Origin: a virus
Direction: 5' to 3' (one strand)
IMG/VR virus record: IMGVR_UViG_3300028742_000011
Length of the DNA stretch: 64,000 nucleotides
In this document: positions 5,307 through 58,275 of the stretch, one piece after another
How the letters are laid out: each line of letters starts with the position of its first letter
How positions within the stretch are numbered: the first letter of the stretch is position 1
The notes under the pieces: generated by a model
What the model was told of the DNA's origin: nothing
Seen by the model: the letters and a program-made list of their open reading frames with translations, nothing else
Database searches by the model: none
Made by a program: the position numbers and the translations under genes

Positions 5307-6375
5307 CCCGGCTACGAGCCTCTACGACCTTTGTGAGCACTGCGGGCACCTGTATAAGGTCCACTTCGACTCCAAGTGCGGACACCTTCACCATGACGCC
5401 GATGAAAACCTGCCCCTCGGCCAGTGTTCTTGCCCCGGCTTCTCCAAGAAGCAGGAGCTAATGCTGAACCCCTGCGCCGAGATTGACTTGGGTACTGGCT
5501 TACCGGTTGAGATAGATGTACCTGAGATGCCGTTTCCTGAGGCTCCAGAGGGGGTACAAGGCGTCGTTGACCCTGAGACGGGGGTTACCACTATCCCTTT
5601 CCCCACAGACGCTTCTATGACCTTTGAGCCTAAGGCCCTGTCTTGGGAGCAAGACCTTGCCCGGATGTGTATCTGCGGCCACACTAAGGGCAGGCACACT
5701 CAGATTTTGACCCACGAAGATGGAAAGGTGACCGGGGGCATCTGTTGTGCCACAGCGTCCACTAAGGATTATTCTTACTGCCCGTCCAAGTGCCAGAAAT
5801 TCACCGAAGTGGTCACGCTGGTTATCGAGACGGACCCTAATGGGGCTGCGAAGATGGCGGCACTGAAAGACAACGCTCCCATCGTGCTGATGAATCAAGG
5901 ACCGAATGCAGGCAAGTACAAGCATCTCATCATGGACGACGTGGTGGGGTTCGGGAAGACGACCTCAGGGAAGCCACCGCTGACAAAGGACATACACAAG
6001 TCCGTGATGTTCGGTCTGGGCTATGGTAAGTCCTTGACAATGAGCGACCTAGATTACGGTATGTTTCACGACGAGATGTACCTCTACAACAAGAAGCCGA
6101 AGATATTAGAGCACTCCGAAGGACAGTTGGAGGGCGTGGCCAACTGGCTCTGGAAGGCCGGGGGTATCAAGAAGACTTTTATCCAAGGTCACGACCTACG
6201 GGATATATGTATCGCGTACGCTGCTGAGGCGATGCGGGAGATGACCGAGAACTTCGACTCCAACGTGGAGAAGGCCGTGCAGAAGCGGATGGCCTTCGAG
6301 AAGAAACAACACAAAGACAAGTGCATCCCGTCGTACAAGAAGAATGGCCGTAAGTTCCGCGATGACAACGGTTGA
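5293..6375 (+). CDS. Hypothetical Cys/His-rich (zinc-finger-like) protein
   Basis: Start is placed at the internal Met after a GGGG RBS. CEHCGH...CGHLHH...CSCPGF cluster. No catalytic motif recognised. Confidence 0.45.
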   Translation: MSVSNPATSLYDLCEHCGHLYKVHFDSKCGHLHHDADENLPLGQCSCPGFSKKQELMLNPCAEIDLGTGLPVEIDVPEMPFPEAPEGVQGVVDPETGVTTIPFPTDASMTFEPKALSWEQDLARMCICGHTKGRHTQILTHEDGKVTGGICCATASTKDYSYCPSKCQKFTEVVTLVIETDPNGAAKMAALKDNAPIVLMNQGPNAGKYKHLIMDDVVGFGKTTSGKPPLTKDIHKSVMFGLGYGKSLTMSDLDYGMFHDEMYLYNKKPKILEHSEGQLEGVANWLWKAGGIKKTFIQGHDLRDICIAYAAEAMREMTENFDSNVEKAVQKRMAFEKKQHKDKCIPSYKKNGRKFRDDNG

Positions 6376-6400
6376 CAACCTAAAGCTTTAGTGTTACACT
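6372..6400 (+). promoter_or_regulatory. Promoter TTGACA-N17-TACACT
   Basis: Exact -35 TTGACA (6372-6377), a 17-nt spacer and -10 TACACT (6395-6400), upstream of the primase-helicase. Confidence 0.55.
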
Positions 6401-6462
6401 AGGTTCATAAGTCATTGGAAGTAAACACCCGTAAGGCGTGGGTGAATATATACAGGAGTTGA

Positions 6463-8487
6463 GTGAAGATACCGGAAGCGTTCACTGGCTCACAGGCGAT
6501 GCAGCTTGTGGTCAGTCAGGGTTGGAAGTACAGAGAAGTATCTAGTCCCAAGATCGAAATCGAGAGATGCCCGTATTGCAAGAAGGACGGGTTCCATTTA
6601 GGCATGGAGATTCATGGGGCCGGGAGTGGGCAGACAAACAGGGACGGTCTGCATGGGTGCGTACACTGTGGCAAGGGTGGTAACCTTTACACACTGAAGC
6701 AGCATTTAGGAATCGTACAGGCGAACATCGAGAGCCGCAGGGACTCGGGTAGTTCTGGGGAGAATAAGAAGCAAGAGGAGCTGCCGGATACGGAAGCGTG
6801 CCACGAAGCACTGCTGGCCGACGAAGCTGCTCTGGACTATCTGGTCAACGGTCGTGGCTTCTCGATGGACGTTATCGGGAAGATGAAGCTGGGCCTTGTG
6901 GAGAAGAGGTTCTTCCGAGGTGTAGGTGAAGTGCGGGCGCTCGTGTACCCGTACATGGTCAACGGCAACACAGTGTTCTGCCACTATCGAACGCTGCCGA
7001 CGATGCCACTGTCTGAGAACTTGGTACCCAAGGCGTTCAGTTCGCCAACAGGATGGCCGGTTCCGTTGTACAATGGTGAAATCCTCAACGATCAGAATCT
7101 CACTGAGGCGACGTTCGTAGAGGGTGAGCCGGACGTAATCTGCGCGATTGACCACGGCGTAAAGAACATCTGCGGCGTGCCGGGTGCAAACTTCAAGAAG
7201 GCCGAGTGGATCGATTCCCTCGACAGACTGGACAAGGTTTATGTCTGCTACGACAAAGATGCGGTGGGCCAGAAGGCTGCGCAGGAACTCGCTAATCGCA
7301 TTGGAATCGAGAAGTGCTGGAAGATTATTCTGCCGGACTTTCAGGTTACGACCGAAAAGGGTGAGCAGCGAAATGGCAAAGACCTGAACGAGTGGTTCAC
7401 ACAAGGCGGAGGAACGCCTGAGGCATTCGAGAAGCTGAAGGAAGAAGCTCAGCTCTTCGACGTGGCCGGTGTAGCGTCCTCTAAAGACTCCATGCAGGAG
7501 TTCTACGACGAACTTGAGGGGAAGACAACATTAGAGCCAAAGTACAAGACGCAATGGCCATCGCTGAACAAGCTGGTAGGGTTCGAAGATGGGGACGTGA
7601 TCGATATCCTAGCACCGGAGAAGATCGGAAAGACTACGTTCGCCTTGAATCTGATGGACCACATGGTTTCAGCATACGGCGAGGACGGGGTTTTTATCTG
7701 CTTGGAGATGACTCGCGCTCGTATGGCACGCAAGTGGGTCTCTTATCTTGGGCAGGTAGCTGACAACATTCCGAAGTCGGTGGAAGAGGGTGAAGCTCTC
7801 AAGGCCGCCTTCATGGAAGCGAGGTCAACTGTACAGGCTATCACAGCAGCACGTGAGGGTGATCTGTACTTCTGCTATCCCAAGTACAAGTCGGTCGAGG
7901 ACATCTATGGTCTGATCCGTGACGTGATCCGCCGCTATGGTGCGAAGTGGATTTGTATCGACAACATTCATCGTCTGGCAGACTCAACACCCTACGACAA
8001 CAGAACGCAGCACCTCTCACAGATATCGAAGATCACGAGTCAGATCGCCAAGGACTACGGTGTGAAGCTGGTACGCATTCTCCAGCCGAACCGTATCAAG
8101 GCCGGGGCAATCGTCTCATCGGATAACACGGATGGTTCGTCTCAGATCGCAAAGGACTGCGACTGCACGATCACCCTTCACCGTACGAAGCTGGGAGAGC
8201 TTAGTGCAGACGACTTCGAGAAGATCGGATATGTGGAACAGGAAGCTGCCTTCGGTGAGGATGTTCTTACTGGCGTGCCTCTATCACGCTATTCGAGTGG
8301 CGGCTACTGTACGCTTCACGTCAACGGGGAGACCAGTACGTTCATGGAGAAGAACGAAGGCCAGATCGCAAAGATGAAGGCTGACTCCAACAAGAACGTG
8401 GGTCACGAAAACCAGTTGGCTAATCTGGGCGTCGTCCTCAAGAAGGACTACACTGGCGAAGTTCCGATGGGAGATGTGGTCTTCTAA
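6463..8487 (+). CDS. Bifunctional DNA primase/helicase (T7 gp4-like)
   Basis: N-terminal zinc-binding CPYC...HGCVHCG. TOPRIM-like EGEPDV...CYDKD. DnaB-family C-terminal domain with Walker A APEKIGKTT. Confidence 0.85.
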   Translation: MKIPEAFTGSQAMQLVVSQGWKYREVSSPKIEIERCPYCKKDGFHLGMEIHGAGSGQTNRDGLHGCVHCGKGGNLYTLKQHLGIVQANIESRRDSGSSGENKKQEELPDTEACHEALLADEAALDYLVNGRGFSMDVIGKMKLGLVEKRFFRGVGEVRALVYPYMVNGNTVFCHYRTLPTMPLSENLVPKAFSSPTGWPVPLYNGEILNDQNLTEATFVEGEPDVICAIDHGVKNICGVPGANFKKAEWIDSLDRLDKVYVCYDKDAVGQKAAQELANRIGIEKCWKIILPDFQVTTEKGEQRNGKDLNEWFTQGGGTPEAFEKLKEEAQLFDVAGVASSKDSMQEFYDELEGKTTLEPKYKTQWPSLNKLVGFEDGDVIDILAPEKIGKTTFALNLMDHMVSAYGEDGVFICLEMTRARMARKWVSYLGQVADNIPKSVEEGEALKAAFMEARSTVQAITAAREGDLYFCYPKYKSVEDIYGLIRDVIRRYGAKWICIDNIHRLADSTPYDNRTQHLSQISKITSQIAKDYGVKLVRILQPNRIKAGAIVSSDNTDGSSQIAKDCDCTITLHRTKLGELSADDFEKIGYVEQEAAFGEDVLTGVPLSRYSSGGYCTLHVNGETSTFMEKNEGQIAKMKADSNKNVGHENQLANLGVVLKKDYTGEVPMGDVVF

Positions 8488-8924
8488 TGAAAGCGTACAC
8501 TGCCCGAGAGAGGGCGAAGGATACCTACCTCCAGAAGCACTACTGCATCACTCTGGCAGAGTACAAACGAATCTGGAATCATCAGGGCGGGAAGTGTGCC
8601 ATGTGCCGCCGCCCTGAATCAGACTTCAGCAAGGGCTTCGCGGTCGATCACGATCACAAGACCGGGTTGATCCGAGGACTCCTATGCTGGTTGTGCAACA
8701 AGAAGCTGGGCAAGTTCCAAGACGATGATGTGTTGGTTCGCTCCGCTGCTGAGTATGTGACATCGCCACCGGCCACCGCCGTACTGGGTACGCCAAGGCA
8801 TAGTCATCCGGGCCGAGTAGGATCGGATAAACGAAACAAGCTGTGTGGGATTACACCCCGCAAAAAGAAGACGAAAGGACGTAGTGGCAGCAAGGGACGA
8901 GCGACCAAAGCAGTCAGGAATTGA
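8487..8924 (+). CDS. Endonuclease VII family (Holliday-junction resolvase / HNH-like)
   Basis: CAMCRR...FAVDHDHKTGLIRGLLCWLCNKKLG matches the T4 Endo VII signature DHDHxTGxxRGxLCxxCN. Confidence 0.8.
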   Translation: MKAYTARERAKDTYLQKHYCITLAEYKRIWNHQGGKCAMCRRPESDFSKGFAVDHDHKTGLIRGLLCWLCNKKLGKFQDDDVLVRSAAEYVTSPPATAVLGTPRHSHPGRVGSDKRNKLCGITPRKKKTKGRSGSKGRATKAVRN

Positions 8925-18862: not shown

Positions 18863-19426
18863 CTAGCTGTTCCCCTGTGCTGCGTTGTTGATATAGCCCA
18901 TGCCGACCTGTTGATTCAAGGTGTCGGACTGCAAGGTGAACTGGTCACGAGCCGCCGCTTGCGCCTTGGCCGCCTGCTCCAGTGTGTGCTTCGCTACGCG
19001 CTTAGTCACCCAGTCTTCGAGTTGGTGTGCCACCTCAGGGAACACACCGGCTGCGCGGTCGTCGATCAGGTTGCCGTTGGCCTGAGCGTCCAATAGGATG
19101 CCGAGGCACGCACGGGCATGGCCGAGGTGATGCACACCAGAGTCTTCTGCTACCTCTTGCTTTTCAGCCCAGCTCTGAAGGTGTCGTAGAGCTGCGTGGA
19201 TGTAGATATTGGCGACTACGTTCTTCTCTCGCCAGTTGCGGTACCCGTACTTCAGGTCACCGTCGAGCATTGCACAAGCTTCGTGCGCCATCGCTACCGG
19301 GCACACTTGGCCCAGCGGGACTTTCTTACTGCCCTGAAGGTCTTTCGGATTTGTCGTTGTAGCCTTCGATTGTGCTGCCGTGTAGGGCAGGCAGCTTCCT
19401 ACCAGACTTAGATTGTTCGCTTGCAA
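18863..19426 (-). CDS. Hypothetical protein, possibly related to phage dATP/dGTP diphosphohydrolase N-terminal domains
   Basis: The DGDLKYGYRNWRE motif is recalled from phage dNTP pyrophosphohydrolase-like domains. This is a low-confidence memory-based call. Confidence 0.3.
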   Translation of the reverse strand: MQANNLSLVGSCLPYTAAQSKATTTNPKDLQGSKKVPLGQVCPVAMAHEACAMLDGDLKYGYRNWREKNVVANIYIHAALRHLQSWAEKQEVAEDSGVHHLGHARACLGILLDAQANGNLIDDRAAGVFPEVAHQLEDWVTKRVAKHTLEQAAKAQAAARDQFTLQSDTLNQQVGMGYINNAAQGNS

Positions 19427-19685
19427 AGCGTCTCCTCGCTTTTCGTTTCTTGAACCAGTGCTTCAGCTCGTCCCAGAACGTGATCTTCTGCACGTAAGCT
19501 TTCCACGGGTCACGGTGTATCAACTGCCACAGGCGCTTGTCGCCCGCGACCATGAACACGTCTCCAAGCTCGTAGTTCGCAAGAACTGAGCTAGGCTCTA
19601 CTATTTTTATCTTTGGCACTGAACAGCTCCTTGGTCTTACCAACGATCCAATCGACTGCCGCATTGTACCAGTGATATTGGACAA
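19326..19685 (-). CDS. Hypothetical protein
   Basis: ORF. Confidence 0.3.
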   Translation of the reverse strand: MSNITGTMRQSIGSLVRPRSCSVPKIKIVEPSSVLANYELGDVFMVAGDKRLWQLIHRDPWKAYVQKITFWDELKHWFKKRKARRRFASEQSKSGRKLPALHGSTIEGYNDKSERPSGQ

Positions 19686-19806
19686 CCACCATGTTACGGG
19701 CGGTTCTCTTTGTCACTATCCAGCGTGTGCCGTCTGTGTGGGTGATGATGTCTCCCACCTGATCTTGCCGTACGAGTTCTTCATCTACCACGAAAGGTTC
19801 AGACAT
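19591..19806 (-). CDS. Hypothetical protein
   Basis: ORF, first gene downstream of the promoter at 19898..19926. Confidence 0.3.
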   Translation of the reverse strand: MSEPFVVDEELVRQDQVGDIITHTDGTRWIVTKRTARNMVVVQYHWYNAAVDWIVGKTKELFSAKDKNSRA

Positions 19807-19897: not shown

Positions 19898-19926
19898 AGT
19901 GTACATCCGAGAACCGTGAATGTCAA
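19898..19926 (-). promoter_or_regulatory. Promoter TTGACA-N17-TACACT (minus strand)
   Basis: The + strand reads AGTGTA-N17-TGTCAA, the exact reverse complement of the conserved promoter. Confidence 0.55.
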
Positions 19927-19933: not shown

Positions 19934-20203
19934 TTACGACCCTATTACCGAGATCACGTCGGCAGTCGTTCCGTCAATCCAGATGTCGTTGAGGTTTCCC
20001 TCACGCAAAGGAATCTGAACAGACAAGCCCTTCTCAAGCAGGTACCCAGTGGTTGCGGTCTCTGTGGGAGAGGCACTGATCGCTACGTTGGCAGTGTTAG
20101 TGCTTTTCGCAGTGACCGTAATCGAGTTCACCACCGGGATGTTCGGCAAGTTCTGCGGCGTCCCGGTGGTTGCGATTGCTACTTGTAAAGCTACTAAATT
20201 CAT
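19934..20203 (-). CDS. Hypothetical protein
   Basis: ORF. Confidence 0.35.
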   Translation of the reverse strand: MNLVALQVAIATTGTPQNLPNIPVVNSITVTAKSTNTANVAISASPTETATTGYLLEKGLSVQIPLREGNLNDIWIDGTTADVISVIGS

Positions 20204-20212: not shown

Positions 20213-21580
20213 TTAGTCGATCTCCGTGTGGTAAAATTGAGCCACTAACCCACGATCTTTGTTCCAGACCAATGCTTCTGCGACTCGCAGGTTGCCGGTA
20301 AAGGTGTTGTCAGAGTGCCATGCGTCAGGCGGGCAGAGTGCGGAGAAGGTGCGTACACGTACGCCGAACTTCTCATCCAATGCCGTCTTGTGCTTGTGAC
20401 CCACGTGAATCTCGCGGAACTTAGTGCGACCGAACTCCTTAGGCCACTTCGATGCAAGCCACATGCCGTAGTCGGCCTGCTTACCTTCGTGCCCGTGGAC
20501 GAGAACGATGAAGCACTCACCCCACTCGACTGTCTTCGCCTTGGTCGGTTCGTTGTCTACGATAACGTCCTCGTAGTCATAGAAGCGACACTCAAGCGAA
20601 TCACCCATCGTGAAGGTGCTCAACGTATCGTGGTTGCCGGGGATGAGCTTTACCTCGACCGGCGCGATACGACGAAGCTTCTCGATTGTCTCCACCAGCA
20701 TCTTACGCACAGTCTTGTAGACCTTGTGGTAACGGCTGTCGGTGTCCACCTTGGTTCCGCTGTATGTGGTGCCCTGAATGTTGTCGGTCTGAAGCAGGTC
20801 GTTGCCGACGCCCAGAACGATCTTGTCAAAGCTGTACAGTGACGCCTGCGCTAGGAGCGAGTCCAGTGCGCGACGGTAGGTCTCGATGGAGATGTTCAGG
20901 TCGTAGTCCGCGTACCCAGTCTCCTTCGACCACGCAAGCTTGCCTGCATGGAGGTCGGGGATAAGCAGTTCGAGGATGTTGCCTGTACCGTGTACGCGCT
21001 GCTTGGTGTAGCGCGGTACGAAGCTGGCTCTGCTTTTCAGCTCAGCCTTCAGCTCCTCAATCTCTTCGCGTACCTCTTTGCCGTTCTTCTTTGGCTTGAA
21101 GGTCGCCTGTACTTGCCAGACGGGGGTGATGATGGGGGCCGTGGACTCGCGGTGCCAGTGTCGGCTAGAGCCTACGGTCTTGGGGAACCCGGCCATCGCC
21201 CACTGGTTGCACTTCCAGCGTTCCACTTCCCAGATGTCCAGATCGACATTACAGACATCCAGAAGCTCTTCGAGGGTTCGAATGTTCTTCTCGGACTTCT
21301 TGACGATCTTCATCTTGTCGTCGGCGTACTCTACGCTCTCGACTAACTGACTCTTATCTTGTGGTTGATTCGAATCACCCTTGCTCTCCTTTGGCTTCGG
21401 GCCGGAAGGCGTAACCAATACGCCAGCCGCCTGTAATGCTGCCCCGTACGATCCAAACACATTTCGAATTTGACGTTCGCTGTATTGTCCGTGTTCGAGG
21501 TAGACCGATCTGCTTGCCCCGCCATGCGCTGCGGCCACTCGCTTTAGGTCTCTTGTAATGTCCTTCTGTGCTCCGGTCAT
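20213..21580 (-). CDS. Calcineurin-like metallophosphoesterase (Mre11/SbcD-like) with an N-terminal extension
   Basis: Phosphoesterase motifs DLHAG, GVGND, GNHD, VHGHEG and GHKH. Confidence 0.7.
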   Translation of the reverse strand: MTGAQKDITRDLKRVAAAHGGASRSVYLEHGQYSERQIRNVFGSYGAALQAAGVLVTPSGPKPKESKGDSNQPQDKSQLVESVEYADDKMKIVKKSEKNIRTLEELLDVCNVDLDIWEVERWKCNQWAMAGFPKTVGSSRHWHRESTAPIITPVWQVQATFKPKKNGKEVREEIEELKAELKSRASFVPRYTKQRVHGTGNILELLIPDLHAGKLAWSKETGYADYDLNISIETYRRALDSLLAQASLYSFDKIVLGVGNDLLQTDNIQGTTYSGTKVDTDSRYHKVYKTVRKMLVETIEKLRRIAPVEVKLIPGNHDTLSTFTMGDSLECRFYDYEDVIVDNEPTKAKTVEWGECFIVLVHGHEGKQADYGMWLASKWPKEFGRTKFREIHVGHKHKTALDEKFGVRVRTFSALCPPDAWHSDNTFTGNLRVAEALVWNKDRGLVAQFYHTEID

Positions 21581-21622: not shown

Positions 21623-21651
21623 AGTGTACCCTATTCCGCGTCCAGTGTCAA
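21623..21651 (-). promoter_or_regulatory. Promoter TTGACA-N17-TACACT (minus strand)
   Basis: AGTGTA (21623-21628), N17, TGTCAA (21646-21651) on the + strand. It overlaps the 3' end of the upstream gene. Confidence 0.5.
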
Positions 21652-22062
21652 GTCCACCTTGGTGATCTTCTTTTTGACAGGTCGCTTAGTGACTTTGCGT
21701 GCTGGCTTGGAGCGGGCTGGCATCATCTGGGCCACTGGTGAAATGTAGAAGGTTCGGAAGTCCCCTCGCATTTCCTTTAGCTCCGAGACTACCGCTGATG
21801 TCTGTGAGTCGAGCTTTGTCTCCAGCTTCTCACTTAGGTTGTCGATTTTTGCTCCGAGGGATGTGATACCGCTGTTGACGTATCCCACACTTGTGTGCAA
21901 CTCTGCTAGGTCTTTCGTTCGTATTTGCTTCACCCAGTCGAATCCTTTATAGGTCGTGATGATGACAGCTACGACGAACGCAATAGACTTCCATTCAGTT
22001 GCCAGCCAGTTCACGAATTGAATCGCGTTGCTGACGTTATGGGAGTCAAGGGGTAGTTGCAT
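21631..22062 (-). CDS. Membrane protein (possible lysis accessory or spanin-like)
   Basis: N-terminal TM WKSIAFVVAVIITTY. Adjacent to the holin-like gene. Confidence 0.35.
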   Translation of the reverse strand: MQLPLDSHNVSNAIQFVNWLATEWKSIAFVVAVIITTYKGFDWVKQIRTKDLAELHTSVGYVNSGITSLGAKIDNLSEKLETKLDSQTSAVVSELKEMRGDFRTFYISPVAQMMPARSKPARKVTKRPVKKKITKVDLTLDAE

Positions 22063-22765: not shown

Positions 22766-25632
22766 TAGCTACTCTTTTTCTTTGGCTTGGGTTTGTCGTC
22801 CGTGCCAAGTCCGCGCATACCGGCCACCGACGAAGGTGGAAGTCCGGGTGCTCGTGGCGTGATCTTCAGGTTGCCCTTGGCATCTGTCTCCATCTTGTTG
22901 CTGGAGAGAGGTGTCTTCTCGATGTCGTCGAGCCACGGCTGTAGGCGGGCCTTTGTTTTGGCATCACCCTGCGTGTACTTCTGGACAATCGTAGCCTGCT
23001 TCTCACGTGGGATATCGGTCATCGTCTTGCCCTGCTTGCGCAGGCTGTCAACGTCAGAGATATCGAACGCGGAACCGTTCTGAGGATCGGCAGGAATCTT
23101 CGCCTGAATGCTAGGCGGGAGGTTGTTCTGCCACACGTGCGTTAGTTCATGCGCGGTCGTAGACGCCTTGTTGTCGTCGTACGCCTGCTGGTTGTTGATG
23201 CGGATGGTGTTGTTGCCAGCGCCCTGATCTACTTCTGCGACTGAACCGCGACCGTCAACCGCTGTGCCGCCCTGACCTTGTACTATGGTGGGCTGTACGG
23301 CGTGCTGCACGTTCTCTAGGGCCGGTGGTAGGGTTGCCCCCTTAGGGTCACCATACGTCGGCGCTGAGTCGTTGTTGTCACTAGGGACCGGTTCGTTGAG
23401 AGTAGGCTGCTGTGCGCCCGGAGCTATTGCAGCGTTAGCGCCCGCTTTGATGATGTTCTTAGCACCTGTGCCCGCGTCACGCACGAATGCGCCGGGACCG
23501 GCTGTACCAAGATCACCCTTCTCAGCAAGCTTACCTGCTGCACGGAATCCTGCCCACGTCTTAGGATGATTCGCAACGAAGTCTATGAGTTCTCGACCGT
23601 GCTGGATGCCACCTACGCCGCCCTCATGCCCTGCAACGAATGCCAGAAGTGTGGAGAGGCCCGCGCCCGCGACCGGTGAGATCGTACCCGCCGCTGCACC
23701 AACTCCGCCGATGAGTCCGGCACGGTTGAGTAGCTGAAGGTTCTTCACGGTCTTAGCATCGCCTGCCAAACTCTCCATGTAGTCCTTGGGTCCAATCGTC
23801 GGTGCGTTAGCTCCGAAGAAGTTCTCCTTGGTCTCATCAGTGAGCTTGTTCCATAGACCGGTGAACTTGGCCGCGTTGAATTGGCCGTTGTCCGAGGTCT
23901 TCTGTAGCAGGTTGCTGAACACATCCTTGGCGAAGTTACGACTAGCCTCAGGTCCAATGATCTGCTGGAGGTTGTCTAGGTTGAAGTCCTTTGCACCGCC
24001 CTTCGGTGCGCCCGAGGCGCTTTTGTAGCGAAGGAACGCACTGGCTGCTTCGTCTGACTTACCTTCCATCAGTCGCTTGATGATTGGGTTATCGTAGCGC
24101 CCGATCTGCTGGCGGTAGTTATTGCGGAGAGCCTGATAATCATCAAGAGCTTGCGCGGCCTCTGGATGGTCCGAGTTCTCCGCGATGTTCTGGATCGTGT
24201 CGTCGATTGCGGAACCGCCTGCACCGCCGTTCGCTGAGCCATCCCATAGGAGGGCATTCAACGCACGCTGGTCAGGGCTGCCCGGAACCGAGTCACGTGC
24301 GGCTTTGCCAACAGTCTGGCGGAAGCGCACTAGGTTCTCAATGTTCCAATCCGGCAGGTCTTCCTGCTTTGGCTCTACATCCGGCTGCTCGACGGCCTTA
24401 CCGTCCGCACCTAGGATAGTCGGCTTGTTCTTATTCGCTTCTGCGGCGGCCTCTTCAGCCTCTTCCGTGACGGGTGCCTTACCGCTGGCTGCCATCTCAA
24501 GTAGAGCGCGAGTCTTAGGTGAAAGCTTCTCGCCTGAGACTTCCTTAGCGCCCGTGGTCAGAGGGTGATCCTCTGGGTCCGGGTCTTGAAGAAGTTCTTT
24601 GGCCTTCTGCGCGATTGGCGAGGTCTCGTCGGCGGGAGCTGTTGCGTCTCCTAGTCGCCCTTGCAAGTCCTGAATACCAGTCTCGTAGTTCGCGTGGAGC
24701 TTGTCCTTCGCATTCTGCAATGCACCCTGAATGCGCTGGCCTACTGTGAGGCTGTCCGGCGCTGCGTTGGTTGCGTCCGCGAGGTCTCCTGCGGTTTCAC
24801 CAACCTTGCCAATAGCTTTTCCGACTGCCTTCGCCCCTGCTCCCAGTCCTGCACCCACCGTACCGAGTACGCCTGCGGTACCGGCCATCTCTGCACCAGA
24901 CTTCGCGGCTGCTCCAAGGTCTCCCCCAGTTCGGTCGAACGTCTGCGCTCCCTGCACTGTGCCTGCGCGTAACGCCTCAGAACCAATGCCGATGAGCTTT
25001 GCTATTTTGGGGTACTGCTGAACGAGCTGTGCTTCCTCAGGAGAAAGCTCTGCTGCTGCCTTCATGCCTGCGGTGCCCAGTTTGAGAGCGTTCATTAGTC
25101 GGGGTGACTGCTCGATGACTTTGAAGACCTGCGACATCTTCTGGAGCTTGTCGCCCATCGCTAGGCCCTTGAAGGCTGCTTCGCCGCCAAGGAACTCCAT
25201 GAGGGTTTCTCCGCCATAGCCCATCTCGTTGAGACCGGGGTTCTCGCGGTTCTGCTCCTGAAGGCGCTGCTGTCCCTCGTTCAATGAATCTGTAACAGTC
25301 TTCGGCACAATATCGTGACCGACAGTATGCTGTCCAACCTTATTGGCGATTGATGCTGCGCCCTGAAGGGTGCTCGTGAGTCCTTGGCCCATGCCGTTGC
25401 CAACTGCTTCTGCGCGGCTAGTCAAGTCCTGCACACCCTGACCGATGCGGTCATACCAAGGCGCGTTAGGATCGATTCCACCTACGTGGATAGCCGGGGC
25501 CTGCTGTGCGTCATGTGGTGCGTCGTCAACTGTATATCCCTGTGGCAAAGCCGACCCCTGTGAAGGGGCCGGTGCCGGGGAGTCATCGACTGTGTATCCA
25601 GCAGGAAGCTGCTGGCCGTTTGGCTGACTCAT
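22765..25632 (-). CDS. Large low-complexity virion/ejection-type protein (955 aa) with an HExxH motif
   Basis: Begins MSQPNGQ like its neighbour. Gly/Ala-rich with TAHELTHVWQ (HExxH) near the C-terminus. Confidence 0.45.
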   Translation of the reverse strand: MSQPNGQQLPAGYTVDDSPAPAPSQGSALPQGYTVDDAPHDAQQAPAIHVGGIDPNAPWYDRIGQGVQDLTSRAEAVGNGMGQGLTSTLQGAASIANKVGQHTVGHDIVPKTVTDSLNEGQQRLQEQNRENPGLNEMGYGGETLMEFLGGEAAFKGLAMGDKLQKMSQVFKVIEQSPRLMNALKLGTAGMKAAAELSPEEAQLVQQYPKIAKLIGIGSEALRAGTVQGAQTFDRTGGDLGAAAKSGAEMAGTAGVLGTVGAGLGAGAKAVGKAIGKVGETAGDLADATNAAPDSLTVGQRIQGALQNAKDKLHANYETGIQDLQGRLGDATAPADETSPIAQKAKELLQDPDPEDHPLTTGAKEVSGEKLSPKTRALLEMAASGKAPVTEEAEEAAAEANKNKPTILGADGKAVEQPDVEPKQEDLPDWNIENLVRFRQTVGKAARDSVPGSPDQRALNALLWDGSANGGAGGSAIDDTIQNIAENSDHPEAAQALDDYQALRNNYRQQIGRYDNPIIKRLMEGKSDEAASAFLRYKSASGAPKGGAKDFNLDNLQQIIGPEASRNFAKDVFSNLLQKTSDNGQFNAAKFTGLWNKLTDETKENFFGANAPTIGPKDYMESLAGDAKTVKNLQLLNRAGLIGGVGAAAGTISPVAGAGLSTLLAFVAGHEGGVGGIQHGRELIDFVANHPKTWAGFRAAGKLAEKGDLGTAGPGAFVRDAGTGAKNIIKAGANAAIAPGAQQPTLNEPVPSDNNDSAPTYGDPKGATLPPALENVQHAVQPTIVQGQGGTAVDGRGSVAEVDQGAGNNTIRINNQQAYDDNKASTTAHELTHVWQNNLPPSIQAKIPADPQNGSAFDISDVDSLRKQGKTMTDIPREKQATIVQKYTQGDAKTKARLQPWLDDIEKTPLSSNKMETDAKGNLKITPRAPGLPPSSVAGMRGLGTDDKPKPKKKSS

Positions 25633-28112: not shown

Positions 28113-28979
28113 TTAGAATGTCGGCACGGAGCTACCCATGCTGGATACGTTCACTGACGGTGCCGCCGCGCTGCCCGCTGTCATCCAGTTGCCACCCGAC
28201 AGGGAGTCGGCTACACCTTCACCGGTAAACCCACCCGAGGCTGGGCTGCTGCCGCCGCTGCCCATAAGACTACCTAGACCGCCGCTTACAAGGCTGCCTG
28301 CTACACCGCCGAGAGCACCACTGACCGCCTGCATCCACGAGTTGTTCTGCGTTGCAATCTGGTTGGCAGTACTAGCACTCGCCGCACCCGCACCCGTCGC
28401 CGCGCTGCCCGCCGAAGTCGCCGGGTTGAACGCTTGGTCAGCGCCCGCTAGTCCTTGGACCGCTGCTTGGTAGTTCTGTCGGCCAGTCGCATAGTTGTTC
28501 TCTGTGATCTGTCCGAGTTCGTTGGCCGTATTGTTTGCGCTGGAGACCGCGATGTTCGCGTTGACTCCTGCGTTAGTTCCACTCTGGAGAGCCGCGTTGT
28601 TACCGCCGCCCTGCGCTGCCTCTGCCTCGCCTGCCGCTTCCTTGGCGTTCGTATAAGCTCGACCGTTCTGGGTGATGGCCTGAGAGTTGAGGTCTGATAC
28701 CTCGCCCGCGCTGAAGCCCTGCTGACTTGGCCCTGCGGCCACAGTCGGAGCGAAGGTGCTCTGAAGTTGGTTGAAGACGCTGGAGGCGTTGCCGAAGACT
28801 TGGCTGGCCTGCTGTGTCATCTGCTGGTAAGCGGTCGCCTGCTGTGCCTGCACATTGTTCTGTGCCGAGGTAGCCCCACAAAGGAGTTCGACTGTTCCAG
28901 TGTACTCGAAAGCGTCGAAGGTGTCAAGCTTGTACTGGTGTCCGTCCCAGATGTAGTCAAGTCGTGTGTAAATTTTCAT
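28113..28979 (-). CDS. Hypothetical Gly/Ala/Ser/Asn-rich protein
   Basis: Start set at Met 28979, coupled by ATGA to the upstream gene. The listed ORF extends to 29135. Confidence 0.4.
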   Translation of the reverse strand: MKIYTRLDYIWDGHQYKLDTFDAFEYTGTVELLCGATSAQNNVQAQQATAYQQMTQQASQVFGNASSVFNQLQSTFAPTVAAGPSQQGFSAGEVSDLNSQAITQNGRAYTNAKEAAGEAEAAQGGGNNAALQSGTNAGVNANIAVSSANNTANELGQITENNYATGRQNYQAAVQGLAGADQAFNPATSAGSAATGAGAASASTANQIATQNNSWMQAVSGALGGVAGSLVSGGLGSLMGSGGSSPASGGFTGEGVADSLSGGNWMTAGSAAAPSVNVSSMGSSVPTF

Positions 28980-29362: not shown

Positions 29363-29407
29363 GATGCCTTTCTAAAATTGCGGGGCGATGTTCTGCCCCT
29401 TGGTTTG

Positions 29408-46427: not shown

Positions 46428-46527
46428 TGTGATTATCCTTTACTTCAAAGACATCACTTACTTCTCGCCTTCTCCTCCCAGAGATGATGAGTAGTGTGTC
46501 GCTGCCTTTTATGTGAAGACAATCCCT

Positions 46528-46630
46528 CTGCTCGTAATCCGACGAGTGTTTGCGATTGCGCGGTCAAGGTCTCTGACCGGCTTTTCCTCAGCACATATCT
46601 AAGGTGTATCGTTCCCTGTAATCCGACAGG
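46528..46630 (-). promoter_or_regulatory. Structured 5' leader of the capsid gene: two hairpins sharing loop GTAATCCGAC plus a third hairpin
   Basis: Hairpins CTCG-taatccga-CGAG (46528..46546), CCTG-taatccga-CAGG (46615..46630) and CGGTCA-aggtctc-TGACCG (46561..46579). Confidence 0.4.
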
Positions 46631-46645
46631 ACTGTACACAGTACT

Positions 46646-48616: not shown

Positions 48617-50746
48617 TTATGCAACTGTAGGCTGTTGTCCTTCCAACCCGCCAGTGCTCGGCAACCCTTCGGTCGCTTCACTCTGAGCGTTGTCCTTGAA
48701 CGACTCACGTACCAAGTCACGCTTGATGCGATTGTCGTTAGACTGGTCTTCAAGCTGCTGCTTCTGCTGGAACTTCTGTTGGTTGCTCTGTGCAGTAACG
48801 GCGGCTTTGGACGCGGCCTGCGCCTGCTGCGATGCAGCGGCACGCTTCTGTTTCATTTCCGGCGTCATCTTCTTGATGATGTCGTTCTTGTTCTTCCACT
48901 CCGTTGACTCGATCCACATCATGACGATTTCCTTCCAGTTGATGTACTCCTCGTTGATGTCAGCGAGAGATTCAACAATCTGGGGGTTCTCAAGAATCTG
49001 TGTGATGAGAGTCATCGACTGCGCCATTGTGCGTTTCGCCGCAAGCGCGGCACCGGCCAGTACTTCGAACTCGATCTTAGCCGCGTGAAACTGGTCAAGG
49101 TCTACTTCGTAGTCGTCGCCCATCTCTTCGCCCAGTACTGCATAAATCTCGGCGTCTGATAGGTATCGCATGACGAGCATGTCGAGGATGTAGAGGAACG
49201 GGCTGAACACCTGTTCGATGAAGTTGTCGAGCGGCCCGTCGAGACGAGTCGCGCTTGCACTTGCGAGGATGCCTGCGCCTCCTGCGGTGCGCCCCATAGA
49301 AGAACGGGGGCCGGATGACGAGCCTTGTACGAGCGCTTGATCTGCGCCCGATGCGGACTCGGTTGCCTTCTCTGACTCGCTTAGGGCCGACCAGATGTCT
49401 GGTGGAACCTTAGGAGTGTCGAGTAGGTGATATGCTTCTTTGGCGATACCGTCCACAGTTAGAATCTTACCGATCCCGGTGCGTATCATTTGCGTCGGCG
49501 CGTTTGTGTCGCGCTGGCGAAGATAGATCGGGTTGATCCCGAACGACAGCATCTTCAGAATTGCGTTGATGGTGCCTTGGTCGACGCGCTGATTCTGTCC
49601 GACGATAAGGCCGAGGCCCATGCCGTAGAATGCCTTGGCGCGGTTCCACCAGTTTGCACTGAGGAACGGGATAACGCCGAACTTGTTCTGTCCGGTGAAG
49701 ATCACTTTCTTGCGGTCGATGACAAGAACCTTGCGGTTTCTATCCCAATACTCAAGCACTTCCATCTTCTTGAAGAGCATGTCAGGGGTCACCTGAATGT
49801 TCATCTCTTCAGCATGGTGAACTGCACCGCGCATGTACGCCATTGTGTCGCTGGCGAGTACTGGTGCTACGTTCGTGCCGGATGGTGCGAACCACCACTT
49901 GCGAAGCTCGTCTTCAGACTTCGGCAACTCCCACCCATCTTTGTCCGGGTGATCTTCGGGAAGCTCTTCGAGAGCTGCGCGGATATCGTTGAGCTGGTAG
50001 AAGTCCATGTAGCGAACGTCGATCACGAAGTCTGCTTTGCGGATATCCCCGACATCGCACTTCGGGTCTACGAACACCTTGTTGATCGGGCGCGACTCGA
50101 AGAACGGTCGCGGCACAACACGGGACTTACGCTTCACGTCTGGGGGTACATCCAGAGGAACTTTCTGCGTGACCTGATCCTGTCCTACACCACCAGTGAT
50201 CGTGGTCGTAGTGGACTTGCGTTCCCACGTTACCACTTCCTTGTAGTCAACTCCCCACTTCCAGATGCCGGTGCCGAGGCAAGCCATCTGTTCGAGTCCC
50301 CACTTGGTTTCGGTCTTGAATCCACAGTCGTTCAGCAAATAGCTGAAGAGCACGGTCTTGGCATCTATGGTGTCTTGACTCGTGCCTGAGCGCGGTCGGA
50401 GTACCATCGGAGGGTCTGCATAGAACAGGCCCTTGTAGAGAGAGGGTACGACAGAGTTCACTACCTTTGCTACTGTAAATCGTTGTACGTTAGGTTCGAG
50501 GACGTATGTGTTCTCGTACACTGACATCGGGCGCGGCGACTGGTAGAGCAAGTCGGCATCACGCCACAAGAGGTTCCACTGCTTCTCGCTGATGAAAGCT
50601 TCGGCTTTGCTGGCGCTTCCAAGCACGAGTGCTAGGTCAGCGTTTAGGGTCTTGAGGGTTCCACCCTTGCCGTAGTCCAATGGGTCAAGCGTCTCACGTG
50701 CTACACCGTCCGCGACTATCCCCGGAGCTTCATTTAGTTCAGCCAT
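48617..50746 (-). CDS. Portal protein
   Basis: 709 aa, immediately downstream of the large terminase. Acidic/Gln-rich C-terminus. Confidence 0.55.
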   Translation of the reverse strand: MAELNEAPGIVADGVARETLDPLDYGKGGTLKTLNADLALVLGSASKAEAFISEKQWNLLWRDADLLYQSPRPMSVYENTYVLEPNVQRFTVAKVVNSVVPSLYKGLFYADPPMVLRPRSGTSQDTIDAKTVLFSYLLNDCGFKTETKWGLEQMACLGTGIWKWGVDYKEVVTWERKSTTTTITGGVGQDQVTQKVPLDVPPDVKRKSRVVPRPFFESRPINKVFVDPKCDVGDIRKADFVIDVRYMDFYQLNDIRAALEELPEDHPDKDGWELPKSEDELRKWWFAPSGTNVAPVLASDTMAYMRGAVHHAEEMNIQVTPDMLFKKMEVLEYWDRNRKVLVIDRKKVIFTGQNKFGVIPFLSANWWNRAKAFYGMGLGLIVGQNQRVDQGTINAILKMLSFGINPIYLRQRDTNAPTQMIRTGIGKILTVDGIAKEAYHLLDTPKVPPDIWSALSESEKATESASGADQALVQGSSSGPRSSMGRTAGGAGILASASATRLDGPLDNFIEQVFSPFLYILDMLVMRYLSDAEIYAVLGEEMGDDYEVDLDQFHAAKIEFEVLAGAALAAKRTMAQSMTLITQILENPQIVESLADINEEYINWKEIVMMWIESTEWKNKNDIIKKMTPEMKQKRAAASQQAQAASKAAVTAQSNQQKFQQKQQLEDQSNDNRIKRDLVRESFKDNAQSEATEGLPSTGGLEGQQPTVA

Positions 50747-53366: not shown

Positions 53367-53368
53367 CG

Positions 53369-54208: not shown

Positions 54209-54213
54209 ATGAA

Positions 54214-55093: not shown

Positions 55094-55317
55094 TAGTCGG
55101 TCAGTGCTACCAGTGGTTTGGCCTTAGCCTCTTCCGCTGCTTTCTGCTTGGCTGCTGACGCCTGTAGCGTCTGCTGCACAAAACTGTTCAGGACTACGTT
55201 GGCGTAGTCGGTGGCGAACTGCATGTGAATATCGTCCATAGGGATTTGAAGTCCCTTGTACGTCCACACCTTTGCGAAGTTCTTCGCGTCCTCGGGTAGC
55301 ACCTTGAATGGCTGCAT
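55093..55317 (-). CDS. Hypothetical protein
   Basis: ORF. Confidence 0.3.
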   Translation of the reverse strand: MQPFKVLPEDAKNFAKVWTYKGLQIPMDDIHMQFATDYANVVLNSFVQQTLQASAAKQKAAEEAKAKPLVALTD

Positions 55318-55715: not shown

Positions 55716-56160
55716 AGATCACATCACAGGGAAGTGAGCTGTCCATGACCCAGAAGCGTGTCCGCGTCTTGCCCTTGTTGACGGAAGTGATCCCGCACAA
55801 CGGGTGCATATCGCGCACACATCCTTCATAGTCAACCGGAGACATCACCGCGTCCCATTGTGGGTGCGTGTGTATGTAACCAATGACGCTCTTCCCGCGC
55901 TCCTCAGCACGTTCTCTAACTTTGTTATACTCCGTGACGTACCACGAGACCTGCTGCTCTGTCTGCGTGTGGTAATCCTTGGTGTACTCGAAGCTATCAA
56001 TGACAATCAAGTCTTTGGCTTTCACCTCACCAACGAGGTAGGCCATGATCTCTTTGTCGGACTTACGAGCCAGCTTGCGGAAATAATCGAGCTGGCTCTT
56101 TTTGAGTTTTACTCGATTCGACATCGCGTTGTTGGCCCCTAGAAAGGTACCGGCATTCAC
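55636..56160 (-). CDS. JAB/MPN (JAMM) metalloprotease domain protein
   Basis: GYIHTHPQWDAVMSPVD matches the JAMM motif HxHx7Sx2D. Its 3' end overlaps the 55317..55715 ORF on the same strand (55636..55715). Confidence 0.6.
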   Translation of the reverse strand: MNAGTFLGANNAMSNRVKLKKSQLDYFRKLARKSDKEIMAYLVGEVKAKDLIVIDSFEYTKDYHTQTEQQVSWYVTEYNKVRERAEERGKSVIGYIHTHPQWDAVMSPVDYEGCVRDMHPLCGITSVNKGKTRTRFWVMDSSLPCDVIYVEEKRSSKTKRSGPEAAEAGQDQGL

Positions 56161-56210
56161 CGGTATGGTAGCTCTATTAGGCGTCCCGTAGGACGACGGC
56201 TACGCTAATA

Positions 56211-56285
56211 TGGTGGACAAGAAGGGGATTGAACCCTTGACCTTCTGCTTGCAAAGCAGTTGCTCTCCCGCTGAGCTACACGCCC
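56211..56285 (-). tRNA. tRNA-Ala (anticodon TGC)
   Basis: Folded by hand: D-arm GCTCAGCGGGAGAGC, anticodon loop TTTGCAA, G3:U70 wobble present, T-loop TTCAATC, CCA encoded. One mismatch at 6:67. Confidence 0.75.
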
Positions 56286-56429
56286 ACTTGAATCTAATGT
56301 CTCCCCGGAGGAGTCTTGCGACCGCGAAGCCGGGGGTTAGCGCCGTAGCGCGAATGTGTGCCCGATTTTTACATCGCAGGCGGGGATGGACGGTTGCGCG
56401 GAGCGCGTACCGACAGACGTGTTAGAAAA

Positions 56430-56553
56430 TGGCTCACGGGGCTGGGATCGAACCAGCGACCGTTCGGTTACTTTTCGAGATTCCAGAGTTGCACTGGAGC
56501 GTGGCGTTCCACATCTCGCACAGCCGAATGCTCTACCGCTGAGCTACCCGCAA
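56430..56553 (-). tRNA. tRNA-like gene interrupted by a 56-nt insertion (including a 41-nt structured core) in the anticodon loop (GTG/His-like anticodon context)
   Basis: Canonical acceptor (TTGCGGG/CCCGTGA), D-arm (GCTC-AGCGGTA-GAGC), T-arm (GCTGG-TTCGATC-CCAGC) and CCA. The anticodon stem TTCGG/CCGAA encloses 56 nt (loop 5 + 41-nt core + 10) containing a 6-bp helix CGAGAT/ATCTCG and two hairpins. Confidence 0.5.
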
Positions 56554-56559
56554 ATGAGC

Positions 56560-57099
56560 TTAGATTTTCTGCCCAGAACGAGTATTGTAATTAGCGATCT
56601 TCGCTTCGATGTCAGCAACACGAGCTTCAACGTCAGCAGACACGCTAGATACTGCGGTCTTGACGGCTGCAACCGGCTTTGCTGCGGCGGTCTCAAGAGC
56701 CTTGACGCGGGCAATGAGTGCCTCTAGGTCAGTCTTGGATGCGGCCTCAACATGCTGGACAACAGTCTTCACTGCGGTGACCGGCGCTGCTACTGCGGCT
56801 TCAACCTTCACGGCCTCAGTCTTCACATCAGCTTCGACCTTGGCTGCATCAGCCTTGGCTTCAGTCTCAACCTTTGCCACTTCTGCGGTAGGGTGGATGA
56901 CGTGCTGTACTGCGGTCTCGACTACCTGACCGACGTGCTTGACTTCTGCTTCGACCTTCTGCGCTACGGTCTGTTGAGCAACGGGAAGTTTGATCGCGTG
57001 CTGGACGGGTACTGGTCTTAGACTTGCGACGGTGTTTCCTGCTGCGGGTGCCTGTGGCATTGTATCTCCTTGCTCCTCACGTACTTGATACGCTTTCAA
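56560..57099 (-). CDS. Ala/Val/Lys/Glu-rich repetitive protein (histone-H1-like low complexity)
   Basis: Repeated VEAxVK / KVEAEVK units. Immediately downstream of the promoter at 57198..57225. Confidence 0.4.
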   Translation of the reverse strand: MKAYQVREEQGDTMPQAPAAGNTVASLRPVPVQHAIKLPVAQQTVAQKVEAEVKHVGQVVETAVQHVIHPTAEVAKVETEAKADAAKVEADVKTEAVKVEAAVAAPVTAVKTVVQHVEAASKTDLEALIARVKALETAAAKPVAAVKTAVSSVSADVEARVADIEAKIANYNTRSGQKI

Positions 57100-57197
57100 A
57101 TAACGGCGGTGGGTAGGGCTTTACAGCTCCTAGGAGGAGGCCCACTCGCCTATCTCGTGACTCTTGGAGGGCTTCTTTCCCTCAACTGTCTAATACC

Positions 57198-57225
57198 AGT
57201 GTAGCACCCTTTTTTCGAAAGTCAA
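57198..57225 (-). promoter_or_regulatory. Promoter TTGACT-N16-TACACT (minus strand)
   Basis: The + strand reads AGTGTA-N16-AGTCAA. Confidence 0.45.
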
Positions 57226-57693
57226 TACGTGGGTGTCTCAAGTCATTGATTCTACAGGTGAATAAATCTTCTGTGTTGTAATGCTTGACTTTAGTGGGTA
57301 CACCTCCGGCATATCCCCTGTCCTTACTCCATCTATCACCATCTGGTCTGTGCTATTGCACCTCTACTAGACACTGTGGCGATTTCCAATGAAGCTTTGT
57401 GGACAATCAGTTGGTATTCCATGCCTAAAACCACACCCAGTCCCCTGCTTGACCCCCTCAAGCTTCGAATTGAGTCATTAGTACGCTGTCTGGATGTGCG
57501 CTGTGCCAAGGTTTTTGTTTGTAAGGACTTGTGAAGACTAGGACGTTATGCCGGTAAGATCATGCGAATCATCATGAAATGTGGGATACTACCCACCCGT
57601 TCCCTAGAAAACTGCTTGTTAGCAGAACCCTGTTGCGTTGTTCGTACGTGATGCTGTCTTGACGGTTGTCTCCCGTCGATTGAAACAAATACT

Positions 57694-57722
57694 AGTGTAG
57701 CATGTGGATGACTATCTGTCAA
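57694..57722 (-). promoter_or_regulatory. Promoter TTGACA-N17-TACACT (minus strand)
   Basis: AGTGTA (57694-57699), N17, TGTCAA (57717-57722) on the + strand. Confidence 0.55.
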
Positions 57723-57743
57723 CCCCTTTTATTCCCTTTAGAA

Positions 57744-58223
57744 TCAAAGAGGTGCGTGATTGTGTTCTTTGGACAGATCGTCGCACTCGGTATTCTGCTC
57801 TCGCGGAATCCACGTGTAGTCGATGGAGAGACCCTTCAGGACTTCCAGATCGGCGTGCGCGTTGAACGCCTTACGCCAGAATGGGTAGTAGAGCTTGTCC
57901 TTCTTCGGACTCCAGATGCCGCTCATCATGTTGACAACGAGCTGTGAGTCGCCGTACACTGTCAACGTATCTGGTTCCACACTGCCGGACTTGACACGCT
58001 GCTCAAGATGCGCTGACAGGTATTCGAGGCCGTAATAGAGCGCGTCGAACTCAGCGACGTTGTTGCTCATCACTGGATTCGTACCGGTTACGCCTGAGTT
58101 CTTGAAGATCAGGCGAGGGAGCGCGTCGGCGCGGTTGAACTCTTTGAGTACGAAGCCCCACGCGGCGGTGCCACCGGGGTTGGGCCAGCAAGACCCATCG
58201 AAGTGTAAGACGAAATGTGCCAT
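57744..58223 (-). CDS. rnhA: Ribonuclease H (type 1)
   Basis: HFDGSCWPNPGGTAAWGFVL (DGS..GG), NNVAEFDALYYGLE (catalytic E), VYGDSQLVVN (D), ...ECDDLSK (D). Confidence 0.75.
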   Translation of the reverse strand: MAHFVLHFDGSCWPNPGGTAAWGFVLKEFNRADALPRLIFKNSGVTGTNPVMSNNVAEFDALYYGLEYLSAHLEQRVKSGSVEPDTLTVYGDSQLVVNMMSGIWSPKKDKLYYPFWRKAFNAHADLEVLKGLSIDYTWIPREQNTECDDLSKEHNHAPL

Positions 58224-58246
58224 GAGTCTAATGTATCACAGACCGC

Positions 58247-58275
58247 TTGACAAGTCAATGGTTGTTTGCTACACT
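58247..58275 (+). promoter_or_regulatory. Promoter TTGACA-N17-TACACT upstream of the DNA polymerase gene
   Basis: TTGACA 58247-58252, 17-nt spacer, TACACT 58270-58275. Confidence 0.55.

Follow-up and report, generated by a model that had tools for sequence, protein, structure and literature searches.

Probable housekeeping-sigma promoters with a shared TACACT -10 box in a relative of the Acidobacteria phage Tunturi_3

Introduction

Why would a phage write the same non-consensus hexamer, TACACT, into the -10 position of promoter after promoter? The question is raised by a stretch of 64,000 nucleotides (nt) from the IMG/VR virus record IMGVR_UViG_3300028742_000011, referred to here as the window, in which a TTGACA-type -35 box followed by TACACT recurs on both strands. 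We found nine such sites, which are very probably -35/-10 promoters of the housekeeping-sigma type (sigma-70/sigma-A), mostly inherited, whose -10 boxes shifted in parallel to TACACT in this phage lineage. The use of host-type promoters by a phage is expected in itself, and the shared TACACT box is the only oddity.

The only close isolate is the Tunturiibacter phage Tunturi_3 (PP885686, 97.6 kilobases (kb)), whose large terminase, DNA polymerase and major capsid protein show 62%, 59% and 95% amino-acid identity to those of the window. Tunturi_3 is a podovirus, and its host is an acidobacterium of Arctic tundra soil origin (PMC11924767). Since metagenome contigs of 96.7-97.0 kb hold near-identical copies of the window, the window represents about two thirds of a ~97-kb genome. 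Further relatives, cited by L number where they must be told apart, were drawn from IMG/VR, JGI and Logan metagenomes and have DNA polymerases 46-66% identical to that of the window. Beyond the near-identical copies, no relative with a DNA polymerase identity >66% was found, so intermediate stages of the -10 change are not visible.

Results

The exact pattern TTGACA-N17-TACACT occurs seven times in the window (6372, 19898, 21623, 28899, 57694, 58247 and 61418; Table 1), and relaxing it to TTGAC-N15-19-TACACT adds the copies at 57198 and 57931 for a total of nine. The chance expectation is 0.00 for the exact pattern and 0.17 for the relaxed one (100 dinucleotide-preserving shuffles each). All nine copies read TACACT at the -10 box and thus have the form TAnnnT; the -35 box is TTGACA in eight and TTGACT in one, and the spacer is 17 nt long in seven, 16 in one and 18 in one. 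Spacers and flanks are unrelated between the nine. An extended -10 TGn is present in four copies (6372, 57198, 57694 and 58247), and two more have TG abutting the hexamer directly. There are 30 TACACT hexamers in the window, nine preceded at a distance of 16-18 nt by a sequence that matches TTGACA in 5-6/6 positions and 21 with ≤4/6, and this clean two-way split by -35 quality, together with the shuffles, rules out a chance pattern. The wider pattern TTGAC[ACT]-N16-18-TAnnnT is found 17 times in the window, against 2.2 in Markov simulations.

An earlier note on this DNA had described a strictly conserved promoter used at least six times, correctly oriented to its downstream genes and intergenic in every case except 21623. 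All six of its sites are present at the positions and on the strands it gave, which confirms the motif; the note's count, however, misses three copies (28899, 57931 and 61418). Intergenic placement holds for the six that it listed (6372 overlaps a stop codon only) but not for the full set, in which five copies are essentially intergenic, one extends into the end of the gene before it and three lie within codons, fully inside coding sequence. The orientation was rightly described, eight of the nine copies being co-directed with local genes; the exception, 57931, faces the DNA polymerase gene. This is not the only promoter type present, as about 15 further TTGAC-anchored promoter-like sites (~8 in the window and seven co-oriented in its flanks) have different -10 boxes, those of the window including TACAAT, TACATT and TACGCT.

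Table 1. Putative promoters with a TACACT -10 box (first nine rows) and sibling promoters with other -10 boxes (last three rows). Extended -10 bases are in brackets. ORF, open reading frame; tRNA, transfer RNA; tmRNA, transfer-messenger RNA.
Motif	Position	Strand	Location
TTGACA-N17-(TGt)TACACT	6372..6400	+	upstream of primase/helicase gene 6463..8487; -35 box overlaps stop codon of ORF 5209..6375
TTGACA-N17-TACACT	19898..19926	-	127-bp (base-pair) gap after ORF 19934..20203; followed by ORFs 19591..19806 and 18863..19426
TTGACA-N17-TACACT	21623..21651	-	upstream of DNA-repair exonuclease gene 20213..21580; overlaps last 21 nt of ORF 21631..22062
TTGACA-N17-TACACT	28899..28927	-	sense strand, 5' coding region of homologue of Tunturi_3 gp23
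TTGACT-N16-(TGc)TACACT	57198..57225	-	hub promoter, predicted to drive minus arm: ORF 56560..57099, tRNAs, terminase, structural genes
TTGACA-N17-(TGc)TACACT	57694..57722	-	hub promoter; ~82 nt before terminator-like hairpin and T-run (57606..57625)
TTGACA-N18-TACACT	57931..57960	+	antisense in RNase H gene 57744..58223, codons for TVYGDSQLVVN
TTGACA-N17-(TGc)TACACT	58247..58275	+	putative promoter of DNA polymerase gene (58372..61068)
TTGACA-N17-TACACT	61418..61446	+	last ~30 codons of ORF 61226..61537 (Leu-Thr ... Cys-Thr-Leu)
TTGACT-N17-(TGa)TACATT	58230..58258	-	RNase H ATG (58223) 6 nt after -10 box
TTGACA-N17-(TGa)TACAAT	61515..61543	+	12 nt upstream of permuted tmRNA (61555..61809)
TTGACT-N17-TACAAT	62949..62977	+	20 nt upstream of tRNA-Met (62997..63072)

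For at least seven of the nine, the corresponding gene junction in Tunturi_3 or in metagenomic relatives also has a TTGACA-N16-18-TAnnnT promoter, and the -10 box of these counterparts varies at positions 3-5 only. The matched junctions are those of the primase/helicase, exonuclease and DNA polymerase genes, the site internal to the gp23-like gene, both promoters of the hub (the region at 57.1-58.3 kb from which the two gene arms diverge) and the site after the polymerase gene. The genome of Tunturi_3 contains 28 TTGAC-N17-19-TAnnnT sites, none of them a TACACT promoter; its sites stand before the primase/helicase (TATAAT), exonuclease gp29 (TATAGT) and DNA polymerase (TATAGT) genes, in the hub and within gp23 (TATGAT). 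The matching junctions, together with the sibling promoters placed at RNase H, tmRNA and tRNA genes, indicate that the sites are real -35/-10 promoters. Such was the reading of the earlier note, and with an exact -35/-10 pair around unrelated spacers it appears well supported by sequence comparison. Because distant relatives carry promoters with a different -10 box at those junctions, the sites would predate the TACACT hexamer.

The counterpart of 6372 in Tunturi_3 is TTGACA-N17-TATAAT at 49556-49584, directly before its primase/helicase gene, and that of 21623 is TTGACA-N17-TATAGT at 31070-31098, before the homologous gp29. At 28899 the motif is spelled by codons, Leu-Asp giving cTTGACa and Tyr-Thr (TAC ACT) giving TACACT; the homologous codons of Tunturi_3 gp23 give TTGACA-N17-TATGAT at 23553-23581, with Tyr-Asp (TAT GAT) at the -10 box. 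Counterparts of the hub promoter at 57198 keep the 16-nt spacer in 7/8 relatives (17 nt in L010 and L022), as well as the bases 'ccta' ahead of TTGACA and, in the transcribed part, the box ggtattagAgAttgAg, and their -10 box is TATAAT, TATACT or TATAGT. The other hub promoter, 57694, has counterparts in L015 (TACACT), Tunturi_3 (TATAGT) and L005 (TATACT), and the DNA polymerase promoter, 58247, in eight relatives, with TATAGT, TATAAT, TAAAGT, TATACT, TAGGAT or TAAGAT. The 61418 copy is the first of two tandem promoters before the tmRNA gene, and the same codons read TACATT in L015 and L014 and TAGACT in L023, Leu-Thr being TTG ACA in all four. No TTGAC-type counterpart of the 19898 junction was seen in Tunturi_3.

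TACACT accounts for 9/17 TTGAC-anchored sites in the window and 2/134 in 13 relatives (Fisher p = 1.4e-8), where the commonest -10 boxes are TATAGT (13 sites), TATACT (13), TATAAT (8) and TAAAGT (8). Position 3 of the hexamer is T in 0/17 sites of the window against 60/134 in the relatives, and C in 15/17 against 29/134; most promoters in the flanks also begin the -10 box with TAC. The preference for TACACT has clear limits within the genome. No TACACT promoter occurs in the ~20 kb flanking the window, where seven co-oriented promoters read TACGCT, TACTGT, TACTAT, TACATT, TAGACT and TAGTCT, and the RNA genes (tmRNA and tRNA) use TACAAT; TACACT is thus the signature of hub, replication and late promoters and not of all promoters. 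The TAGACT and TAGTCT promoters of the flanks form an early sub-family beginning TTGACAcgttt that is common to Tunturi_3, L022 and L023.

Since at least seven of the sites appear to be inherited, the shared box points to parallel change to one hexamer in this lineage. TACACT is a single step away from TATACT, a frequent box in the family. With no relation between the spacers, and with codons spelling out three of the copies, selection on the hexamer itself, and not drift, would account for the uniformity; within those codons TACACT is obtained by Tyr-Thr in place of Tyr-Asp, Val GTG in place of GTA and, at 61418, Leu CTG in place of the TTA of L014.

Other causes for the C-rich -10 box were considered and rejected. 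Recent duplication or gene conversion is at odds with the unrelated spacers and flanks and with sites that are older than the hexamer. GC content does not explain it, as L015 (54.7%) and the unrelated siphovirus Tunturi_4 (55.4%) match the window (54.6%) yet use TATACT or TAT-type boxes. Nor does avoidance of restriction sites, as no avoided palindrome overlaps TATACT, TATAAT or TATAGT. Palindromes containing GTAC, as well as GTATAC, are not avoided in the window, and TATAAT is present once against 3.8 copies expected from trinucleotide content, which largely explains its scarcity. A genome with 2-aminoadenine (Z-base) was discarded because there is only a MazZ-like N-terminal domain, with no PurZ-like gene in the window scans or the Tunturi_3 annotation; the domain in question is the N-terminal one of dATP/dGTP diphosphohydrolases (PF18909, E = 1e-20), in a 187-residue protein encoded at 18863..19426 (-). 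Finally, no longer operator shared around the -10 box was found. A AACAGTCG box that follows three copies (28899, 58247 and 61418), and at 58247 is part of the family-conserved DNA polymerase leader, looks like a shared start-site context.

Discussion

What reads these promoters, and what might be gained from a shared TACACT box? The reader is most likely the host RNA polymerase carrying its primary sigma factor. No sigma factor, anti-sigma factor or RNA polymerase was detected when the large and most of the small window proteins were scanned with PHROG and Pfam, the Tunturi_3 annotation includes no sigma factor or RNA polymerase gene, and the motif is of the host consensus type and not of a class read by a phage sigma factor or phage polymerase (T7-like, N4-like or phiEco32-like). 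Sigma region 4 would read TTGACA, the 17 ± 1 bp spacer would set the geometry, and TGn would add an extended -10 contact in four copies. Sigma region 2 would read TAnnnT with base specificity at A (position 2) and T (position 6) alone, and TACACT would be tolerated for that reason. Transcription is predicted to start ~7 nt downstream of the -10 box.

The phage is virulent-looking, and the coding fraction of the window is 93%. PHROG scans recognised the large terminase, portal, a tail-fibre-like protein and ribonucleotide reductase on the minus strand, and DNA polymerase, primase/helicase and helicase on the plus strand. Besides tRNAs, the terminase and the structural and lysis genes, the minus arm includes exonuclease and ribonucleotide reductase; DNA polymerase, tmRNA, tRNAs and small ORFs are found on the plus arm, which then runs round the circle into the replication genes at 1-14.5 kb of the window. 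The promoters would drive both arms from the hub, the DNA polymerase, primase/helicase and exonuclease genes, the operon with the MazZ-like gene, a group of tail and lysis genes, and the RNA genes. Most would have been inherited before their -10 boxes changed in parallel to TACACT.

The sites resemble canonical sigma-70/sigma-A promoters in their perfect -35 box, 17 ± 1 spacer, conserved T1, A2 and T6, frequent TGn and position upstream of genes and RNA genes. TACACT is the -10 box of predicted Escherichia coli sigma-70 promoters, including those of acpP (TTGCAA-16-TACACT), edd, sodC and ydhC (PMC3946193). In E. coli, however, TACACT is one occasional variant among many, whereas in the window phage, whose host is probably an acidobacterium, it is found in half of the strong promoters and always with a near-perfect -35 box. 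Another parallel is phage T5, in which the sigma-70 holoenzyme transcribes all three gene classes (PMC7472727). Like T5, the window phage has many near-consensus host-type promoters over a large virulent genome, divergent arms and no detected phage polymerase; unlike T5, it has a uniform non-consensus -10 box, and while the temporal classes and polymerase-binding proteins of T5 are known experimentally, the window phage is known from sequence alone. The window copies differ from T4-type middle promoters (MotA/AsiA) in that the -35 box is present and not replaced by a MotA box near -30. The promoters of Tunturi_3 and its relatives, which are unannotated, share with those of the window the junctions, the -35 box, the spacing (including the 16-nt spacer in the hub), a leaderless RNase H gene and the TTGACAcgttt early sub-family, but have TATAGT, TATACT, TATAAT or TAAAGT in place of TACACT.

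As for the purpose of the shared box, we prefer the explanation that it tunes one class of promoters. A common -10 box that is below consensus and harder to melt, coupled to a consensus -35 box, would give the hub, replication and late promoters equal strength and an equal response to the state of the host polymerase. Several points weigh against tuned, inherited housekeeping promoters. The lack of TACACT in the ~20-kb flanks fits a regulated promoter class equally as well as simple tuning, and the genome was examined over the window and its flanks, about 83 kb of ~97 kb. The Pfam screen covered most of the small window proteins outside the structural block. Lastly, 57931 is the weakest case of the nine as a putative promoter: the sequence is promoter-like in only one of seven relatives, L015 (TATACT, by way of synonymous Val GTA, not GTG), and may simply follow from the coding of the conserved motif GDSQLVVN.

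An alternative that we consider unlikely is that TACACT is a lineage-specific signal, in which the class is read or timed by host polymerase altered by a phage protein that binds polymerase or sigma, or by a host sigma variant. If this is the case, the bases from -10 to -8, usually thought to be weakly read, would hold regulatory information in this system of an Acidobacteria phage and its host. It is also conceivable, though quite unlikely, that the TACACT sites form a separately regulated class whose -10 box is read or masked by a phage sigma-binding factor, a DNA-binding regulator or a small sigma-like protein, which would turn the hub, replication and late promoters on or off as a group. 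The confinement of the nine copies to the hub, replication and late part of the genome is consistent with such a class, as are the absence of TACACT from the seven co-oriented TTGAC promoters of the small-ORF, presumed early flanks and the use of TACAAT by the RNA genes, and a parallel move of seven or more inherited promoters to a single hexamer implies that selection acted on bases only weakly read, as a rule, by sigma factors. The window proteins tested, on the other hand, include no sigma, anti-sigma or helix-turn-helix domain, and nothing beyond the two hexamers is conserved, the base at -13 being G, C or T, with no shared palindrome. Moreover, the same-junction promoters of Tunturi_3 are near-consensus TATAGT or TATAAT, for which no helper is needed.

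Alternatively, TACACT may be an adaptation to a host whose primary or stationary-phase sigma factor prefers C at -10 positions 3 and 5. A search for the host among bacterial genome contigs gave only four weak and uninformative matches, from various metagenome-assembled genomes; one of them was a Terracidiphilus contig with 46% identity. The hosts of Tunturi_3 and Tunturi_4 are Tunturiibacter (PMC11924767). Tetranucleotide TTAA is absent from the window (66 copies expected), Tunturi_3 (154 expected) and Tunturi_4 (65 expected), with 93, 158 and 39 copies present in the relatives L023, L006 and L010, respectively. About 25 six-base palindromes for which 4-31 copies each are expected are also missing from the window, including CGATCG, GAGCTC, GCCGGC, CCGCGG, TGATCA, CTCGAG, CTGCAG and AGATCT, and this avoidance profile overlaps those of both Tunturi_3 and Tunturi_4. 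Such very unusual avoidance common to the three phages suggests that they share a Tunturiibacter-like host group with many restriction systems. Avoidance of restriction sites was listed for the window, L001-L004 (Tunturi_3 and Tunturi_4), L021 and L152.

A host preference of this kind would account for C being nearly universal at hexamer position 3 in the window phage and uncommon there in its relatives, and TGCTACACT, with its C at -13, is found at three hub and polymerase copies. In IMG/VR, at least 120 unrelated contigs matched TTGACA-N14-TGCTACACT; none of the matches listed is related to the window phage, and a few of them are environmental phage contigs with 2-3 TTGACA-N17-TACACT promoters of their own, such as L055 (3/3) and L031 (3/5). 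Sigma-S is a proteobacterial factor whose promoters in Proteobacteria have a -10 box close to CTAYRCT (TAYRCT), usually with a weak -35 box. TACACT conforms to TAYRCT, with C at -13 in three copies, but that C is missing from 6/9 copies, and typical sigma-S promoters lack the perfect -35 consensus seen here. In addition, TACAAT is the -10 box at the tmRNA and tRNA genes of this phage. The restriction profile points to a Tunturiibacter-like host, yet Tunturi_3 and Tunturi_4 use TAT-type -10 boxes, and although the host species may differ, we therefore do not favor a host preference and regard it as very unlikely. A particular host sigma factor or an additional phage regulator behind TACACT, as suggested in the earlier note, seems unlikely, given the ordinary -10 boxes of these two phages, the lack of sigma, anti-sigma or RNA polymerase domains among the window proteins tested and the occurrence of TACACT in unrelated environmental phage contigs and in predicted E. 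coli promoters. It is hardly credible, finally, that the copies are a cassette spread by duplication or gene conversion, a non-promoter repeat or chance: twelve bases are identical in seven copies, but their spacers and flanks are unrelated, at least seven lie where distant relatives have a promoter with another -10 box, they obey promoter rules (17 ± 1 spacing, TAnnnT in relatives, orientation along the genes) and the shuffles gave 0 matches.

Host-type phage promoters are newly recognised here in a family of Acidobacteria phages, and the preference for one -10 hexamer is lineage-specific. In a brief literature search, no paper was found that describes promoters of Acidobacteriota or of the phages that infect them, and the paper on the Tunturi phages is silent on promoters (PMC11924767). 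The locus and its relatives provide a set of strong promoters, validated by comparison, that combine a consensus -35 box with 17-bp spacing and in many cases TGn, and that include leaderless and tandem layouts; the set could aid annotation of these phages and the development of expression tools for a phylum that is hard to manipulate. The parallel shift to one hexamer, in turn, amounts to a small, clean natural experiment on constraints at the middle of the -10 element.

Sibling promoters, RNA genes and non-coding elements

The RNase H mRNA would be leaderless, because the ATG lies only 6 nt past the -10 box. The same layout (-10 box, 6-nt gap and ATG) is found in ten relatives, with an 8-nt gap in L008, and it holds across the family whether the gene is divergent from or in line with the DNA polymerase gene; RNase H is inverted in the window, L015, L023, L024, L014 and L010 relative to Tunturi_3, L021 and L022. 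In the window the -35 boxes of the RNase H promoter and the divergent 58247 promoter abut to form a 12-bp palindrome, TTGACAAGTCAA, and since the two boxes form it together, the DNA polymerase and RNase H promoters probably compete for polymerase. The 5' leader of the DNA polymerase gene (58282..58371, +) contains a box around ACAGTCGCAAAGATCACC (family consensus ~GCAGAGAYC) that is conserved in most relatives and may, by analogy with T4 gp43 and speculatively, be a translational operator.

The permuted (two-piece) tmRNA gene in the window (61555..61809, +) matches Rfam RF04321 at 76 bits, and such genes are also present in Tunturi_3 (L002 39172..39396, -) and L015 (8064..8328, +). The tmRNA goes unmentioned in the paper describing Tunturi_3 (PMC11924767). 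A 121-nt Rfam tRNA match at 56433..56553 (-; 47 bits), which ARAGORN did not call, may be a tRNA with an intron or large insertion.

Between the two hub promoters, the ~460 nt at 57226..57687 (-) contain no conserved ORF. Blocks in this region (CACGTAC..CAACG, TTCTAGGnAACGGGTGGGTAGT, CGTCCTAGTCTTCACAAGTC, CAGCAGGGG and ACAGGGGA..TGCCGnAGGT) are conserved with L015 and L024, despite DNA polymerases only about 65% identical to that of the window, and the region probably encodes one or more non-coding RNAs, with no Rfam family matching it. Because a hairpin and T-run lie ~82 nt downstream of 57694, this promoter probably makes a short non-coding RNA. A hairpin and T-run are present in the window, L015 and L024 alike, each with a different stem sequence as judged by eye; RNAalifold, run on the three sequences in a gapped alignment, did not recover the hairpin. 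Another terminator-like hairpin, found by eye in gap sequence, lies upstream of the 28899 site (29363..29407).

Tunturi_4 (L003/L004), which has annotated integrase and repressor genes and is apparently temperate, has promoters with a much longer common pattern, aac(a/c)tc TTGACACCAAAt.AAAAC..GTG TAnnnT, which suggests a regulator site overlapping the promoter.

No TTGACA-type promoter occurs between 29.4 and 57.1 kb of the window. This interval includes the leader of the major capsid gene (46428..46645, -), which is 81% identical in DNA to its Tunturi_3 equivalent (L001 6247..6468), compared with about 67% in genes. The leader contains two hairpins whose loop does not vary while their 5-bp stems covary (CCTGT-CGGATT-ACAGG and CTCGT-CGGATT-ACGAG in the window; GTAGT-CGGATT-ACTAC and CCAGT-CGGATT-ACTGG in Tunturi_3), making it a candidate protein-binding RNA element.

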